Source: Candidatus Binatus sp.
Lineage (GTDB): Bacteria > Desulfobacterota > Binatia > Binatales > Binataceae
Assembly (NCBI RefSeq): GCF_030646925.1
Contig: NZ_JAUSKL010000102.1
Span: forward strand, 3,457-67,456
Direction: 5' to 3'
DNA: 64,000 nucleotides
The notes below the pieces were generated by a model. That model did no database searches and was not told the origin of the DNA. It saw only the letters and a program-made list of their open reading frames with translations. The position numbers were made by a program, and so were the translations under genes. This document shows, one piece after another, positions 4,056 through 8,500 of this stretch. The number at the start of each line of letters is the position of its first letter. Within the stretch, counting starts at the first letter, position 1.

Positions 4056-5000
4056 ATGATTCCGAAGAAACTGCTGGTAGCCACCCGCGGCGAGATCGCG
4101 ATTCGCATCCTGCGCGCTGCGTCGGAACTTGGCGTCCCGACCGTCGCGATTTTTTCCGAAGACGATTCGCTCTCGCTTCACATTCGCAAAGCCGACCAGG
4201 CGATTCCGCTGAATGGCGTCGGGGCTGCGGCATATGCGGATATCGAGCAGATCCTTTCGATTGCAAAAGCGGCCGGATGCGACGCGATTCATCCGGGTTG
4301 CGGCTTTCGGAGTGAGAGCGCGCAATTCGCGCGGCGATGCGGCGACGCCGGAATCACATTTGTAGGGCCGCGCGCCGAAATCTTCGATCTGTTCAGCGAC
4401 GAGCAGCAAGCGCGAGTATTGGCCGAGCGATGCGGCGTCCCGATTGTGCACGATGCATCGACGCCGCCGCGCTCGCGCCGCATCGAAGTGCAAATCGTCG
4501 GCGATGGCGCGAGCGTATGCCATCTCTTCGAACGCGAAACCAGTATCCAGCTAGTCGATCAAGCGATCGTCGCAGTCGCGCCATGTCCGAGCCTCGACGC
4601 GGCGATGCGTCTCGCGAAAGAAGTGAGTCTCGACGGCCTCGCCACGTTTGAGTTTCTCATCATCGAAAACGCTGGCGACGACGATGGATTCGCGTTCGTC
4701 AACGCGAAGCCCGGACTTCAGCCTGAGCACCCCGTGACCGAGGAAATTCTCAGCATCGACCTGGTCAAAACCGAGTTGAAACTCGCGGGCAAAACGTCGC
4801 TGCAGGAAATCGGTCCAGGGCAAAATGAAATTGCGAAGCCGCGCGGCTTCGCGATCCAGCTTCGAATCAACGCCGAATCGATCGACGCGAACGGTACGAT
4901 CAAGCCGGCGACAGGAACGCTCACCGCGTTTGAAATGCCGTCGGGACCGGGCATCCGGGTCGATACGTCCGCGTATGCTAAGGCTCACGCTCACTCTTGA
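4056..5000 (+). pseudogene. degenerate biotin carboxylase (ATP-grasp carboxylase) homolog, internally deleted and C-terminally truncated
   Basis: The N-terminus is canonical (KLLVATRGEIAIRILRAASELGVPTVAIFS, HPGCGFRSESAQFA). The glycine-rich ATP-binding segment between GVPIV and RRIEVQIVGDG is missing. ERDCSxQRR is replaced by ERETSIQLVD, and EMNTRxQVEHPVTE by VNAKPGLQPEHPVTE. The ORF has 314 aa versus about 450 for AccC-type enzymes and stops about 33 nt before a dispersed repeat. Confidence 0.55.
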
Positions 5001-5032
5001 GCGGTCGCCTGCGCGCGCAAGGAGGGGAACGG

Positions 5033-5078
5033 CGGAGTGCGAAAACCCTCATGCGTGGAATTTACCTTGAGCCTCGAA
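5033..5078. repeat. 46-nt dispersed intergenic repeat, copy 1 (copy 2 at 9547..9591)
   Basis: cggagtgcgaaaaccctcatgcgtggaatttaccttgagcctcgaa aligns with cggagtgcgaaacccctcacggtggagtttaccctgagcctcgaa, with about 5 differences including 1 indel. Both copies lie just downstream of a stop codon. Confidence 0.8.
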
Positions 5079-5133
5079 CAGGCGCTTCAGAGGTTGATGA
5101 GATGAGCGCTGCGCGGTTAGCAGGACTGACTTA

Positions 5134-5159
5134 AGGAATGTTTCACGTGCAACATTCCT
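5134..5159. repeat. 26-nt near-perfect palindrome between convergent genes
   Basis: aggaatgtt-tcacgtgc-aacattcct: a 9-bp stem whose 8-nt loop contains the palindrome cacgtg. There is no adjacent T-run, so it is not a classical terminator. Confidence 0.5.
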
Positions 5160-5405
5160 ATCACCCATCCCGTCCGCCGTGTGCGTAGCTGATGGTGCGA
5201 AAATTCCGGCGCATCCTGCTGAAACAGGACGTTTATTTAGGACGAAACGCGGATATACTGATGATCCGCAAGCAGGAAGTGCGGAAGGGTCATCCGATTA
5301 CGCTCGAGCGCAAGGGCTGGATGGGCCGATCTCGGTGCACACGGTGATCATCGCGCGCAAGAATTCGTAGCCGAGATTTTCTTTTTCTCCGCGCTGATTC
5401 TTTCA

Positions 5406-6647
5406 CTAATTGGTGGGATTCTTGGCGCTGTAGTTGGGCTTCGGATAATCGAAATACGTCACCCAGCAGCCATCGAACTCCTCGAATTCCGGCCCGCGAG
5501 GCGTACCCATCAGGACTTCGTACGAACCTGATTTCGTGAAGATAAGCTGCGGCGGTTTCAAGGTATGAGGGCTGTTCCATCCCCATGAATTCCACAAGGA
5601 GCCGCGCGCAGAGGTGGTAAGAATCTTGATCTGCTTCATTCTGGCAAATTCGGGGTCCGGGATTACTGGGGCAATCGTGTCGGGATATTTGCCGCCCGCA
5701 TTAGGTTCAAATGAAATCAGGAATGTGTCTATGTGCATGATGGCAAAATCTAGACCTCCGTGCGGCTCTGGAAGGTCCACCGTCAAGGTGTCGCCACGAT
5801 ACAAAACCTTGGGCGAGCAGTGCAGGCTGTCCTCGATGGCGGTCACAGGTTGTATCGCAGCAAAAACGACTGACGCGACTGAGATCGCGAATGCCAAACA
5901 CTTAATGGCCAAATGGTTTCGATCGTCAAAACTGTACATGATAATGTGGTCCCGATGTTCGTTTTCTCTCGACGCCCTCGCGCCCGCATCTCTCGCCAAG
6001 CGTTCGAAAGTATCGCGCTGCTCTGACGTCATCGTGCGGTTTCGCACGTCCACCGCCCGCGCCCGCAGATGCTGTGAGATAAGAACGCCTCTGGACACCT
6101 GCCCTTCGATTACGCGCGTAATCGCATCGACCGCATCATACCGGCTCGCCCCCGTCGTCTGCTGATGGTTGTAGGCCGTCCAAATCTCATCGGCAGCCTC
6201 ATAGTTGCTGTACAGATTGCGAGGATCCTGGCCGTTCCGCATATTTGTGTACATCGCTTCGGCTTGAGATCTCGCTGTGCGAGTACCGCTGGTGACAGTT
6301 AGGTCCATTCCCGTCTCTAGATAGTATCGCTCGGCAAGGTTTTCCATAAACGACCGCGCTTCCGATGTAAGCTCAATGTCTGCTTCGATCGTGTAGTGGG
6401 GCCGGCGGCTGCTATCGGAAGGCGGGCTGAAACCGTCTCGGATTGCTCGCTCGATGGTGGCAGGATCGACGATGCCGGTTACCTTGAGCCACGATTCCTT
6501 CTGGTAAACCTCGGTCGCTTCCTCTGTCTCTTCGCCGAAATCGCCGTCGATCGAGCCGTCATAAAATCCCCTCGAGTCAAGGAATTGTTGCCATCTGACA
6601 ACGTCAGATCCGCGCATATGTGGTCTGGTCAGACTCAGAGGTCTCAT
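5406..6647 (-). CDS. composite protein: PG_binding_1 domain + VanY/M15-like (LAS-type) peptidase module, then an internal signal-peptide-like hydrophobic segment and a ~145-aa unknown module
   Basis: From ORF 5406..6728. Start moved to ATG 6647, which is preceded by GGAAGGAG. PG-binding motif: VVRWQQFLDSRGFYDGSIDGDFGEETEEATEVYQ. M15/VanY-like motifs: LTVTSGTRTARSQ, SQHLRARAVDV and EHRDH. This is followed in frame by MYSFDDRNHLAIKCLAFAISVASVVFAAIQPVTA. GC by hand count is 24/60 (5701-5760) and 31/60 (6301-6360). Confidence 0.7.
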   Translation of the reverse strand: MRPLSLTRPHMRGSDVVRWQQFLDSRGFYDGSIDGDFGEETEEATEVYQKESWLKVTGIVDPATIERAIRDGFSPPSDSSRRPHYTIEADIELTSEARSFMENLAERYYLETGMDLTVTSGTRTARSQAEAMYTNMRNGQDPRNLYSNYEAADEIWTAYNHQQTTGASRYDAVDAITRVIEGQVSRGVLISQHLRARAVDVRNRTMTSEQRDTFERLARDAGARASRENEHRDHIIMYSFDDRNHLAIKCLAFAISVASVVFAAIQPVTAIEDSLHCSPKVLYRGDTLTVDLPEPHGGLDFAIMHIDTFLISFEPNAGGKYPDTIAPVIPDPEFARMKQIKILTTSARGSLWNSWGWNSPHTLKPPQLIFTKSGSYEVLMGTPRGPEFEEFDGCWVTYFDYPKPNYSAKNPTN

Positions 6648-6663
6648 CTGGTTTGTCTCCTTC

Positions 6664-6790
6664 CTAGCAGGTTGCGGAAAAAGTGTTTTTAACCCCTGAC
6701 AACATTGATCCAAGACGCACTCTCGCAATCGTAGTAATGCTTACTCTTCGCCGAAATCGTCTTTCGCCGGGTTTTTCCGCAACCTGCTAG
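6664..6790. repeat. 127-bp unit bounded by perfect 19-bp inverted repeats
   Basis: 6664-6682 ctagcaggttgcggaaaaa is the exact reverse complement of 6772-6790 tttttccgcaacctgctag. The spacer is 89 nt. The proximal arm abuts the Shine-Dalgarno of the gene starting at 6647. Confidence 0.9.
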
Positions 6791-7177
6791 AGAATCGAGC
6801 AGCCCCTAAAACCAAATCGAGCGCATTAGACCGATTCTCGATTGCTCTCGAAATGACACGATCTGCCCGTAGCCGTAAGGGTGAACAATTTCAGGGCAAA
6901 GAAACGTCCAACCCTTGAACGCTCTGTGTGGGCGAAAACCATTCTTGCAGGGTGCGTTGCACAATCAATTGATGTTCGATAGGTCTAGGCGCGCATCGAT
7001 CCGGCCGAGACGCGGCGCTGGATCATGAACGGGATGCGTGCGATGCCGCCGCTAAAACCACGAACGGGAAAGAAACATAGCTACATCGATAGCTGGTGAG
7101 CGCAAAAATATAACGCTCAGAGCAATAGCTACTTGGATTTGCGAGAATAGCAACATCAATGTACAGGAGCGGTCAAG

Positions 7178-8500
7178 ATGAAAATTGGCTATTTCACGGA
7201 ACGGCCGGTGCGATACGTTCCCGAGGAAGTGATTCTGCGCAACGGCGGACACTTTGGGGTGTCGAATAGCTACTTCGATCGCGAGAAGGCGGCCGATGAC
7301 TATAACTATTTCATCGACGAGAACCTTTACGCGGAAGAATTGGGCTTCGACATAATCGCGCTGAATGAGCATCACGGCAATCCGTTTTGCATGGGCAGCG
7401 TGATGAACGTCGAGGCGGCGATTCTGGCGCGGCTCTCGAAAAAGGCGCGGATTCTTTTGATCGGCAACCCGCTGCCGGTGCTGAAGCATCCGCTGCGCAT
7501 GGCGGAAGAGCTGGCCGAGATCGATCTCATCTCGCGCGGGCGACTCATCACCGGATGGGTGCGCGGTGCGGGCAGCGAGCAGTTCTTCAACAATGCGAAT
7601 CCGGCCTACAATCGCGAACTGTTCGAAGAGGCGCACGATTTCATCGTGCAGGCGTGGACCAGGCCCGGCCCGTGGCGCTACGAGGGCAAGCATTTTCACT
7701 ATCGGCACGTGAATCCGTGGGCGCTGCCATATCAGAAGCCGCATCCGCCGATGTGGATTCCCGGAGTCATCAGCCCCGAGACGGTGAAGTGGTGCGCCGA
7801 GCATAACTATCCATATTTTGGACTTGGCACTTCGCTGGGGCCGACCTGCGACTTGTGGGAATACTATGCGGACGAAGCCGCCAAGCACGGCTATCAGGCC
7901 GGGCCGGAGAATTTTGGCTACGTGATACCGACCTTCGTCGCCGAGACCGAAGCGCGCGCGCAGGAACTAGGCAAGGGCTTCCTGTTCGGCGGCGGGCAGA
8001 ACTCGTTCGCGCGCGTCGAGCATACCCTGCCTCCCGGCTACAACTCGCAGGACGCGATTCGCAGGATGTCCAAGCAGCCGCAGGGAAGCTGGCTCGGCGT
8101 GAGCGGCGACAAACTGCGCGGGCATTCCGAAGAGCAGAAGATCGATCCGGAAGCGGTCAGGGCAAGGCTCGAGCCGGGCTATAAGAAGGCGCAGCATCAG
8201 TTGCAACTGATCATCGGAACGCCAAAGCAAGTGACATCGAAACTGAAGAGCATCCTGAGCGTGCTGCGTCCCGGCGCGGTGGTGGTGTTCAACGTGCAAG
8301 GACCGGTGACGAATGAAGATCGGCAGACCAGCATGCGGCTGATCGCGCAGGAGGTCATCCCGGCGCTGCGCGAGCATGCCAAGGCGAACGATCTACCCGA
8401 TGCACTCGAGAAACCGCCCGGCTCGGTAAAGCTGACCTCGGGCACCGCGCGGATACCGGTGTCGGATCGCGGTCCGCTGAAGGAACTGGGTTTGATTTAG
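7178..8500 (+). CDS. LLM-class flavin-dependent oxidoreductase (luciferase-like monooxygenase), long form
   Basis: Motifs MKIGYFTERP..., GFDIIALNEHHGNPF, LAEIDLISRGRLITGWVRGAG. RBS caggag lies upstream of the ATG. Confidence 0.85.
   Translation: MKIGYFTERPVRYVPEEVILRNGGHFGVSNSYFDREKAADDYNYFIDENLYAEELGFDIIALNEHHGNPFCMGSVMNVEAAILARLSKKARILLIGNPLPVLKHPLRMAEELAEIDLISRGRLITGWVRGAGSEQFFNNANPAYNRELFEEAHDFIVQAWTRPGPWRYEGKHFHYRHVNPWALPYQKPHPPMWIPGVISPETVKWCAEHNYPYFGLGTSLGPTCDLWEYYADEAAKHGYQAGPENFGYVIPTFVAETEARAQELGKGFLFGGGQNSFARVEHTLPPGYNSQDAIRRMSKQPQGSWLGVSGDKLRGHSEEQKIDPEAVRARLEPGYKKAQHQLQLIIGTPKQVTSKLKSILSVLRPGAVVVFNVQGPVTNEDRQTSMRLIAQEVIPALREHAKANDLPDALEKPPGSVKLTSGTARIPVSDRGPLKELGLI

Follow-up and report, generated by a model that had tools for sequence, protein, structure and literature searches.

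The 413-codon open reading frame (ORF) at positions 5406 to 6647 of the window, by which we mean the whole 64,000-nucleotide stretch of Candidatus Binatus sp. DNA that was analyzed, very probably arose when two overlapping neighbor genes were joined by a 4-nt deletion in a decaying extra copy of a gene cassette. The ORF exists and reads as the first-pass annotation described it, to which we add that it lies on the minus strand, with its start at ATG 6647 and its stop at 5406-5408. The encoded protein, P0001 (413 amino acids), has no N-terminal signal. It begins with a PG_binding_1 domain, followed by most of a LAS/M15 zinc-peptidase domain; a predicted Sec-type signal within the protein then precedes a beta-rich module. 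A strong GAAGGAG ribosome-binding site is located 9 nt before ATG 6647. A TTG start at 6728 was dropped because its path crosses a MITE and because this strong site precedes ATG 6647. The ORF and its parts are as follows.

5406..6647, minus strand: fused 413-codon ORF (P0001), the hydrolase frame running into the frame of the downstream gene
6450..6614, minus strand: PG_binding_1 domain, residues 12-66 (Pfam PF01471, E=2.9e-13, 50.2 bits against a cut-off of 23)
5954..6395, minus strand: LAS/M15-type zinc-peptidase domain, in frame as far as ...ENEHR, with G-x-R...Q and S-x-H-x6-D kept and HxH missing
5406..5939, minus strand: downstream gene proper (P0002, 177 amino acids), whose ATG 5939 formerly overlapped the hydrolase stop by 14 nt
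5838..5939, minus strand: predicted Sec-type signal peptide, P0002 residues 1-34 (h-region CLAFAISVASVVFAAI; c-region QPVTA/IEDS)
5409..5837, minus strand: mature Ig/Fn3-like beta-sandwich module with a conserved Cys41...Cys158 pair (AF2 model)

The first-pass annotation had proposed looking for a stop between the two halves in orthologous loci, and such a stop was found. In the closest relative, L001 (74% amino acid identity), the hydrolase ends ...EHREGPHYHVQF-TGA, encoded by cgg gag ggg ccg cac tat cat gtg cag ttt TGA, and the halves are separate genes elsewhere as well. The ATG of the next gene in L001 lies 14 nt inside the hydrolase end, an ATG...TGA overlap that implies translational coupling. 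Compared with this relative, the window has GGGA in place of GGGAGGGA, with 4 nt missing between 5949 and 5950, and the DNA alignment with both L001 copies (A1) shows a clean 4-column gap in the window. The missing nucleotides fall 8 to 11 nt upstream of ATG 5939. As a result of this 4-nt deletion, the hydrolase enters the downstream frame, and its HxH motif and old stop are out of frame. The two junction features are as follows.

5949..5950, minus strand: 4-nt deletion site, ancestral C-GGGA-GGGA-CCA to C-GGGA-CCA, causing the frameshift
5926..5952, minus strand: out-of-frame remnant GPHYHVQF plus TGA of the old hydrolase C terminus (stop 5926-5928; +2 frame)

The GPHYHVQF remnant is identical in sense to the C terminus of the intact relative P0003. 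We suggest that slippage in the GGGA-GGGA repeat removed 4 nt just before the gene overlap, so that ribosomes translating gene 1 would slide into the frame of gene 2 and produce a 413-amino-acid chimera. No catalytic activity is expected of this product, which at best would carry the beta module anchored in the membrane, from which signal peptidase could still release it; alternatively, the beta module could still be made from ATG 5939. In all of this the fused ORF shows no essential difference from ordinary pseudogenization, in which an indel upstream of an ATG...TGA overlap fuses overlapping operon genes and the chimera is called as one protein. Of the three explanations offered initially, that of two cistrons with a lost separation was right in recognizing two genes, the second able to start at ATG 5939, but the cause was a 4-nt deletion and not the loss of a stop. 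The idea of a remnant fused to a neighbor holds insofar as the hydrolase copy is broken, but the neighbor is a conserved operon partner and not an unrelated gene. A new topology is contradicted by the uniqueness of the fusion, by the removal of the catalytic/metal motif HxH, and by the two separate genes kept in the relatives.

An assembly or sequencing artifact, in which two intact overlapping genes appear fused because of a 4-nt gap introduced during metagenome assembly, is improbable. The deletion is known from one metagenome-assembled contig, the protein cluster has a single member, and neither the deleted (CGGGACCACAT) nor the undeleted junction allele turned up a second time when metagenome contigs were scanned for the pattern. 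Moreover, the window copy keeps all its other conserved residues, and its dN/dS does not exceed that between intact copies, so the break is recent or, less likely, not real. However, the loss of a single GGGA tandem unit is the kind of change that replication slippage typically makes and short-read errors do not. The locus also bears three further, independent lesions or rearrangements (a MITE, a truncated motif, and a stray methyltransferase fragment), and broken hydrolase copies are common among the relatives. A genuine bitopic fusion whose wall-binding/hydrolase half would be cytoplasmic and whose beta half would be periplasmic, or a programmed frameshift yielding the full hydrolase, is scarcely credible: the frame is open over 413 codons, its internal hydrophobic segment could serve as a signal anchor, and other two-gene chimeras exist (P0010 and a signal peptide::hydrolase C-half gene in L001), but P0001 is the only protein to span both halves in this order among 5.8 billion proteins, the HxH motif is removed, the site CAT CGG GAC CAC offers no slippery heptamer at CGG-GAC-CAC, the relatives are unshifted, and the other chimeras break elsewhere, each without catalytic parts, and look like rearrangement debris.

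Two overlapping genes joined by a deletion thus remain our preferred reading, and the surroundings of the ORF bear the marks of decay. The region at 5264-6999 is a secondary, decaying copy of a two-gene cassette; besides the two genes, it holds the following features.

6664..6790, strand not assigned: 127-nt MITE (terminal inverted repeats of 19 bp), inserted so as to separate the upstream region from the hydrolase GAAGGAG ribosome-binding site
6825..6999, minus strand: intergenic region upstream of the cassette, homologous by blastn to L001 and L005
5264..5370, plus strand: frameshifted 3' remnant (~35 codons) of a SAM-methyltransferase gene (blastn to L001 7874 and L005 2132)

Both the decayed gene and the dispersed repeat reported initially were found. 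The MITE lies 17 nt upstream of the hydrolase ATG and has five further copies in the window genome (94 to 100% identical), whereas L001 has none at the homologous position; its arm occurs at ~36 sites, several of them at contig ends. The methyltransferase remnant ORFs, ...KGHPITLER... and ...ISVHTVIIARKNS followed by a stop, match a full 205-amino-acid gene found beside the cassette at the native locus. In the window genome this native syntenic locus (C67) carries the beta gene only; the hydrolase and the first ~10 beta codons have been deleted and a new start has been recruited. A truncated copy of a palindromic motif lies at 6873-6889, and the full motif precedes the hydrolase in sister clades. 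The claimed islet of 40 to 52% GC is a real drop but a milder one, at 50 to 57% in 400-nt windows; GC content over 5264-6999 is 53.7%, against 60.8% for the genome. An Rfam search of eight cassette loci identified no RNA family for the conserved upstream element. Two further candidates were rejected: a 134- to 138-amino-acid two-TM protein adjoining the native locus as a holin, since it persists after hydrolase loss and is absent from other contexts, and the TGTTCA-N4-TGAACA motif as a cassette-specific, possibly SOS-type operator, since it turned out to be an element dispersed through two genera.

Gene 1 encodes a signal-less, endolysin-like enzyme in which PG_binding_1 forms the N-terminal domain and a LAS/M15-clan zinc peptidase the C-terminal one. 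Stand-alone hydrolases of 230 to 241 amino acids (P0003, P0004, P0012, and others) are the rule in the relatives. The start of the ORF lacks a signal peptide, as had been stated, with a maximum KD15 of -0.1 over the first 60 residues, and an upstream extension able to supply one was sought in the relatives and was absent. The PG_binding_1 repeat that had been claimed is borne out by a PF01471 match above the gathering score; Pfam finds this domain in 14 of 19 hydrolase family members, and in the PDB that of P0001 matches the PG-binding domains of SleB and CtpB. Two of the VanY/M15 motifs originally read from the ORF are invariant family columns in alignments A2 and A3, SGTRTxxSQ (G121/R123/Q128) and SxHLxxxAVD (S191/H193/D200), the latter being SQHLRARAVD in the window, the first zinc-ligand motif with its preceding Ser. 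However, EHRDH does not represent the third LAS motif, which is in fact HYHVQF (HxH), with its codons out of frame at 5929-5946; H236 and H238 are conserved in at least 90% of the hydrolase family, and a test of the window protein for HxH as the second LAS motif found none in frame, while all other invariant residues are kept.

In Pfam, the window protein remained below the threshold of the curated M15 family (M15_3, E=0.1, 13.2 bits against 23.2). Matches to VanY and M15_3 were found in 8 and 6, respectively, of the 19 family members, with best values of 4e-4 and 3e-3, all of them subthreshold. Because no curated Pfam score is reached, the hydrolase appears to be a divergent, uncurated branch of the LAS/M15 clan. 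The AF2 model of the intact relative P0003 (pLDDT 88) was compared by Foldseek and matched 1lbu (E=2.7e-4), VanYB (5zhf), ChiX (5opz), and hedgehog N-domains, with match probabilities of 0.8 to 1.0 and modest TM-scores; on this model, the hydrolase family has the LAS fold. Phage M15 peptidases were among the BFVD matches of the hydrolase, and PDB sequence searches with single sequences and profiles matched it through the PG-binding domain only.

Gene 2 would encode a Sec-exported, disulfide-bearing Ig-like beta-sandwich. Its homologues are stand-alone proteins of 170 to 190 amino acids. As judged from sequence, the first ~34 residues of the product starting at ATG 5939 look like a type I signal peptide: a 16-residue h-region (KD15 2.56) precedes VTA/IEDS, the corresponding residues ~245-271 of P0001 are its sole hydrophobic segment, and in the alignment all P0002 homologues have an N-terminal hydrophobic stretch ending in AxA-Q. 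The AF2 model of P0002 has a low-confidence helix at residues 7-27. The ~145-residue beta-rich module reported initially is supported by this model, with a pLDDT of 82 and 10 strands. PDB matches of the modeled module are to generic beta-sandwiches only, PDB searches with single sequences and profiles returned nothing matching it, and it belongs to no Pfam, NCBIfam, or PHROG family. It has 328 representatives at E<=1e-3, and one distant relative is fused to a secreted M23 (LAS) peptidase.

The intact pair, a signal-less PG_binding_1-LAS peptidase followed by a putatively secreted Ig-like beta-sandwich, is patchily distributed across Binataceae lineages, and the hydrolase is present in 23 of 165 genomes. 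Hydrolase and beta genes overlap or abut in this order at at least 10 loci in at least four genera, as well as on an unrelated metagenome contig, at 38 to 46% identity. The divergences of the two proteins track pairwise (r=0.85, over 15 nonindependent pairs), and dN/dS is 0.41 to 0.51. At least 7 of ~20 loci have a broken hydrolase (split, stopped, or truncated), and the beta gene stands alone in at least 7 loci and also occurs as two or three tandem modules. Other hydrolase clades are paired instead with a secreted protein of 365 to 402 amino acids or with a Kelch propeller, and in genome G006 an intact hydrolase is adjoined by a different secreted protein, with no beta gene present. The cassette is flanked by cytochrome b, methyltransferase, and SecDF genes; by dut and an M16 peptidase gene; or by BolA and glutaredoxin genes.

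Several known systems resemble the intact pair in part. The zinc D-Ala-D-Ala carboxypeptidase of Streptomyces albus G is secreted with a signal peptide, unlike the Binataceae hydrolase. The two share a PG_binding_1 domain followed by a LAS domain with H-x6-D and HxH, and this carboxypeptidase (PDB 1LBU, MEROPS M15A) is the best Foldseek match of the P0003 model, with a match probability of 1.0 but low TM-scores (0.31 to 0.34). Sequence similarity to it is limited to the PG-binding domain, and the Binataceae family has an insert of ~50 helical residues. The modular endolysins of Gram-negative phages (phiKZ gp144, the Burkholderia AP3 endolysin 5NM7, and LysT84 7RUM) are likewise signal-less, with PG_binding_1 preceding the catalytic domain, and they are among the fold and PHROG matches only by virtue of the binding domain. 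Their catalytic domains, however, are muramidases or transglycosylases, and the Binataceae cassette lies outside prophages and lacks a holin or spanin. In Serratia marcescens, ChiX/ChiW is a holin-dependent L-Ala-D-Glu endopeptidase (PMC4259817, PMC5778951). ChiX, a fold match (5opz), is also a chromosomal, nonphage, signal-less LAS (M15) peptidase that needs a non-Sec route to the periplasm, but it has its own adjacent holin and spanin-like genes and serves chitinase secretion, whereas no holin was found for the Binataceae hydrolase, whose conserved neighbor encodes a beta protein with a predicted Sec signal.

Periplasm-acting effector/immunity pairs include Tse1-Tsi1, Tae-Tai, colicin M-Cmi, and pesticin-Pim. 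Such pairs also place a signal-less wall-degrading enzyme beside a small, signal-peptide-bearing beta protein, with orphan and tandem partners, frequent loss of the enzyme, a patchy multicopy distribution, and a partner type that changes with the enzyme clade. They differ in that no type VI secretion system (T6SS) sheath was found in the window genome or in five carrier genomes and the Binataceae hydrolase lacks receptor-binding or translocation domains. The beta protein of the intact cassette could well be an immunity-like periplasmic antagonist or partner of the hydrolase, a role that we rate just short of probable and that would explain why the beta gene is retained after the hydrolase is lost. 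The effector-plus-periplasmic-immunity reading offered at first pass fits the comparative pattern, but its T6SS route is unsupported, as no VipB/TssC was found. Observations on the side of an immunity role are the broken hydrolases, the solitary and tandem beta genes, the partner that changes by hydrolase clade, the dN/dS values, and the M23-fused beta relative; on the other side are the lack of a delivery system or an adjacent holin among the findings, the G006 hydrolase without a beta gene, and the generic beta fold. A more specific proposal is rather unlikely, namely, that the intact cassette with its swappable Sec-exported beta partner constitutes a new wall-targeting toxin/immunity (bacteriocin-like) system of uncultured Binataceae, which would work without a T6SS, with release by lysis or an unknown route, and might be tied to the genus-wide palindromic motif heading Mu-like particle genes.

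Equally doubtful is the suggestion that the intact hydrolase serves a conserved Mu-like head-tail element as an endolysin, in lysis or autolysis, with the beta protein as a periplasmic regulator and not an immunity protein. The hydrolase has the modular architecture of Gram-negative phage enzymes (N-terminal PG_binding_1, catalytic C-domain, no signal), the 27-nt palindromic motif that precedes sister-clade hydrolases is also found 34 nt upstream of a Mu-like protease/head-tail cluster, and that cluster shows no lysis gene. However, the Mu-like gene occurs in 116 of 165 genomes, a distribution far from that of the hydrolase, and the motif is a dispersed element of up to 50 copies that precedes many unrelated genes. 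The flanks are housekeeping genes, the loci read showed neither a prophage location nor an adjacent holin or spanin, and a tblastn search of 50,697 phage records matched neither half. A classical T6SS cargo effector with its immunity protein is very improbable. What would fit is a small peptidoglycan hydrolase without a signal whose gene overlaps that of a periplasmic beta protein downstream, together with orphan partners and the M15-type domains known in T6SS effectors (PMC11796386). However, a search that gave a match in a control genome found no sheath protein VipB/TssC (PF05943) in the window genome (98% complete) or in five genomes carrying intact cassettes (82 to 96% complete), and the loci read have no Hcp, VgrG, or PAAR neighbors.

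The public gene call for this locus is a 413-amino-acid "peptidoglycan-binding protein"; it is best regarded as a chimera produced by a frameshift, and no biological meaning should be given to its paradoxical topology. The comparison has exposed two uncurated families that are largely confined to Binataceae, a divergent LAS/M15 peptidase branch without any export signal and a small Ig-like domain, predicted to be periplasmic, that belongs to no Pfam family and counts ~330 representatives at 50% identity. The two families travel together, frequently break and reshuffle, and carry the population signature of enzyme/antagonist pairs. If they do not form a toxin-immunity system, they would amount to one more accessory cell wall module; if they do, in a phylum without a T6SS, they would point to an unrecognized export route for wall-degrading proteins.

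The fused open reading frame (P0001) carries a single hydrophobic segment, at residues ~245 to 271, and none at its N terminus, in agreement with the first-pass annotation, which had described an ORF with no N-terminal signal. The PG_binding_1 domain and the peptidase pattern that it had reported in the N-terminal hydrolase half were also recovered, the former at residues 12 to 66 (E=2.9e-13) and the latter as SGTRTxxSQ and SxHLxxxAVD in the middle of the frame, in columns of the LAS (zinc-peptidase clan) pattern common to the hydrolase family. As it had further proposed, the in-frame ATG at 5939 gives a 177-aa product whose N terminus is an n/h/c signal-like segment (…AAIQPVTA/IEDS), followed by a body that is beta-rich in the AF2 model. 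The drop in GC content is real, but the 40 to 52% first given was too low: we measured 50 to 57% over 5000 to 7400 and 53.7% over 5264 to 6999, with a genome value of 60.8%. The features of the locus are as follows.

5406 to 6647, minus strand: fused ORF of 413 codons, ATG at 6647, stop at 5406-5408
5264 to 5370, plus strand: SAM-methyltransferase 3' remnant, frameshifted, ~35 codons
6664 to 6790: MITE of 127 nt with 19-bp terminal inverted repeats
6873 to 6889: truncated upstream palindromic motif

When 5.8 billion proteins were searched with the whole ORF, none other shared the fused architecture. The same search gave stand-alone hydrolase halves, P0003 (241 aa, 74% identical) and P0004 (234 aa), and signal-peptide proteins with one to three copies of the C-terminal beta module. 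P0003 ends in …ENEHREGPHYHVQF, and the corresponding window sequence is …ENEHRDHIIMYSF…. At L001, the locus of the closest relative with two separate genes, the hydrolase gene ends in cgg gag ggg ccg cac tat cat gtg cag ttt TGA, and the next gene has its ATG within this end, so that the two overlap by 14 nt (ATG…TGA). Alignment of the window to both L001 junction copies left a clean 4-column gap, with the deletion site between 5949 and 5950 (ancestral C-GGGA-GGGA-CCA to C-GGGA-CCA), and the deletion appears to be the loss of one tandem-repeat unit. GPHYHVQF-TGA is still readable in the +2 frame of the window (5926 to 5952). The deletion therefore causes the hydrolase frame to run into the overlapping downstream frame, with loss of the hydrolase stop and of HxH, the catalytic/metal motif near the hydrolase C terminus. 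EHRDH, initially taken for a LAS motif, is not one; the true HxH was put out of frame by the deletion. The suggestion of two cistrons that had lost their separation, the second starting at ATG 5939, held for the two-gene state, and the cause proved to be the 4-nt frameshift; in the alignment of orthologous loci, a TGA ends the hydrolase of L001. A genuinely novel design or topology was rejected: a 4-nt frameshift, in a copy that is degenerating, accounts for the paradoxical topology.

Positions 5264 to 6999 are homologous both to L001 and to a paralogous locus in the window genome, and this segment carries several lesions: the SAM-methyltransferase fragment, the MITE, and the truncated motif. 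Intact copies of the methyltransferase gene flank the cassette (hydrolase gene, then beta gene) in L001 and on contig C67 of the window genome, and the frameshifted remnant indicates that a locus of this kind was the source from which the segment was copied. The MITE, whose termini are the perfect 19-bp inverted repeat, is inserted 17 nt upstream of the hydrolase start codon, has no counterpart at that spot in L001, and has five further copies in the genome (C37, C77, C105, C75, and C38; 94 to 100% identical). Its flanks, TCTCTAG / CTAGGAAGG versus TCTCTAAGAAGG in L001, point to duplication of a TA or CTAG target. Its 19-nt arm is present at ~36 sites, several of them contig ends, suggesting a parent IS element. 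The native syntenic locus on C67 comprises cytochrome b, a 134-aa membrane protein, the beta gene, the methyltransferase, and SecD; here the beta gene alone was kept, and the hydrolase and first ~10 beta codons were deleted. With this hydrolase deleted and the window copy broken, the genome (98% complete) contains no intact hydrolase. The dN/dS of the window copy was 0.43 to 0.51 versus relatives, and that between intact copies was 0.41; read as no higher in the window copy, these values indicate that the frameshift is probably recent.

The hydrolase family comprises ~32 clusters, all those with a source name being Candidatus Binataceae, and its best existing annotation is "peptidoglycan-binding domain-containing protein." The invariant or near-invariant residues (G121, R123, Q128, S191, H193, D200, H236, and H238) make up the LAS pattern SxHxxGxAxD…HxH. 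None of the Pfam peptidase families reached its cut-off, with VanY touched by 8 of 19 members and M15_3 by 6 of 19 below that threshold. The AF2 model of P0003 (pLDDT 88) matched the Streptomyces Zn DD-peptidase 1LBU, which shares its PG_binding_1 plus LAS layout, as well as VanYB, ChiX, hedgehog N-domains, and phage peptidases in BFVD. Members with PG_binding_1 lack an N-terminal hydrophobic segment; the distant members P0033 and P0035 carry a signal peptide or lipobox in place of the PG_binding_1 domain, which argues that the catalytic domain would act outside the cytoplasm.

The beta module is known from at least 48 clusters (90% identity) and 328 representatives (50% identity), mostly proteins of 150 to 200 aa with a signal peptide. 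It has two conserved cysteines and belongs to no Pfam, NCBIfam, or PHROG family; its AF2 model (pLDDT 82) is an Ig/Fn3-like sandwich with generic structural matches only. One distant relative joins a signal peptide and the module to Peptidase_M23, another LAS wall hydrolase, and a second ends in TonB_C; these fusions hint that the module may function in the periplasm alongside wall peptidases of the LAS type. In the representative library, P0143 and P0216 are the relatives with secreted Peptidase_M23 and TonB C-terminal domains.

Among 165 Binataceae genomes, the hydrolase was found in 23 and the beta module in 15. In at least 10 loci the module lies directly 3' of the hydrolase, the two genes overlapping or abutting; these loci belong to three genera (g1, g22, and g28) and an unrelated metagenome contig, at 38 to 46% identity. 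The two proteins diverge in step (r=0.85), and the L001 structure was found again in three independent assemblies. Other hydrolase clades instead adjoin a secreted protein of 365 to 402 aa or a secreted Kelch propeller. The former (L007, L008, and L013) has a lipobox-like signal and no Pfam match; the latter (L014 and L017) is a beta-propeller with a signal peptide. The hydrolase is often broken, whether split (G020, G118, and G158), interrupted by stops (G152 and G157), or truncated (G119 and G157). The beta module often stands alone (C67, G067, G068, G101, and L061) or is multiplied in tandem. In L001, a 469-bp tandem duplication created a signal-peptide::hydrolase-C-half gene. Its copies (6442-6835 and 6911-7304) are 82% identical, the new ORF lies between the hydrolase and beta genes, and the structure recurs in the three independent assemblies (L058 to L060). 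P0010 (L002, 2054-2872), a chimera from another lineage adjoining a BrnT/BrnA pair, reads hydrolase(1-32)::TM-module::hydrolase(~189-234) in one frame.

A rival explanation is that the hydrolase is an endolysin-type autolysin linked to a conserved Mu-like head-tail cluster, because a 27-nt palindromic motif, AGTTCAGGGMTGAACWGTTCAGCCTTA, precedes the hydrolase in sister clades and is also found 34 nt upstream of the Mu-like protease gene. However, this motif is dispersed, standing ahead of many genes in as many as 50 copies, and the Mu-like gene, present in 116 of 165 genomes, is far more widespread than the hydrolase. The motif is found upstream of the hydrolase in L009 to L014 and L017, at C24:39552, C29:675, C92:80981, and C123:56160 of the window genome, in truncated form at 6873 to 6889 of the window, and in 46/46 genomes of the genus and 11/11 of a second (2 to 50 copies each); its reversed control gave none, and it matches no Rfam family. 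Its fixed distance upstream of many genes makes it a candidate promoter/operator or REP-like element. The Mu-like cluster lies outside the window on C92 (about 66.8 to 81.0 kb) and encodes Mu-like_Pro (E=1e-73), a gpT major head protein, a sheath-like 512-aa protein, a tube, baseplate V/W/J/I-like proteins, and fibres; it showed no lysis gene. Its protease gene is single-copy and widespread (116/165 genomes of the family, 45/46 of the genus), suggesting a vertically kept phage-derived (GTA-like) element. No holin, spanin, or prophage context was seen at the cassette loci inspected, and phage records gave no match to the cassette halves. T6SS was rejected as an export route, as VipB is absent from the window genome and five carriers.

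Returning to the two-gene reading, the gene arrangement shows a cassette of two putatively translationally coupled genes, an enzyme with no export signal and a partner predicted to be exported. The partner may be a periplasmic, immunity-like antagonist of the hydrolase; it persists where the enzyme has decayed, and different enzyme clades have partners of different types. The underlying pair is of an uncharacterised yet recognisable kind, a wall hydrolase with a periplasmic partner.
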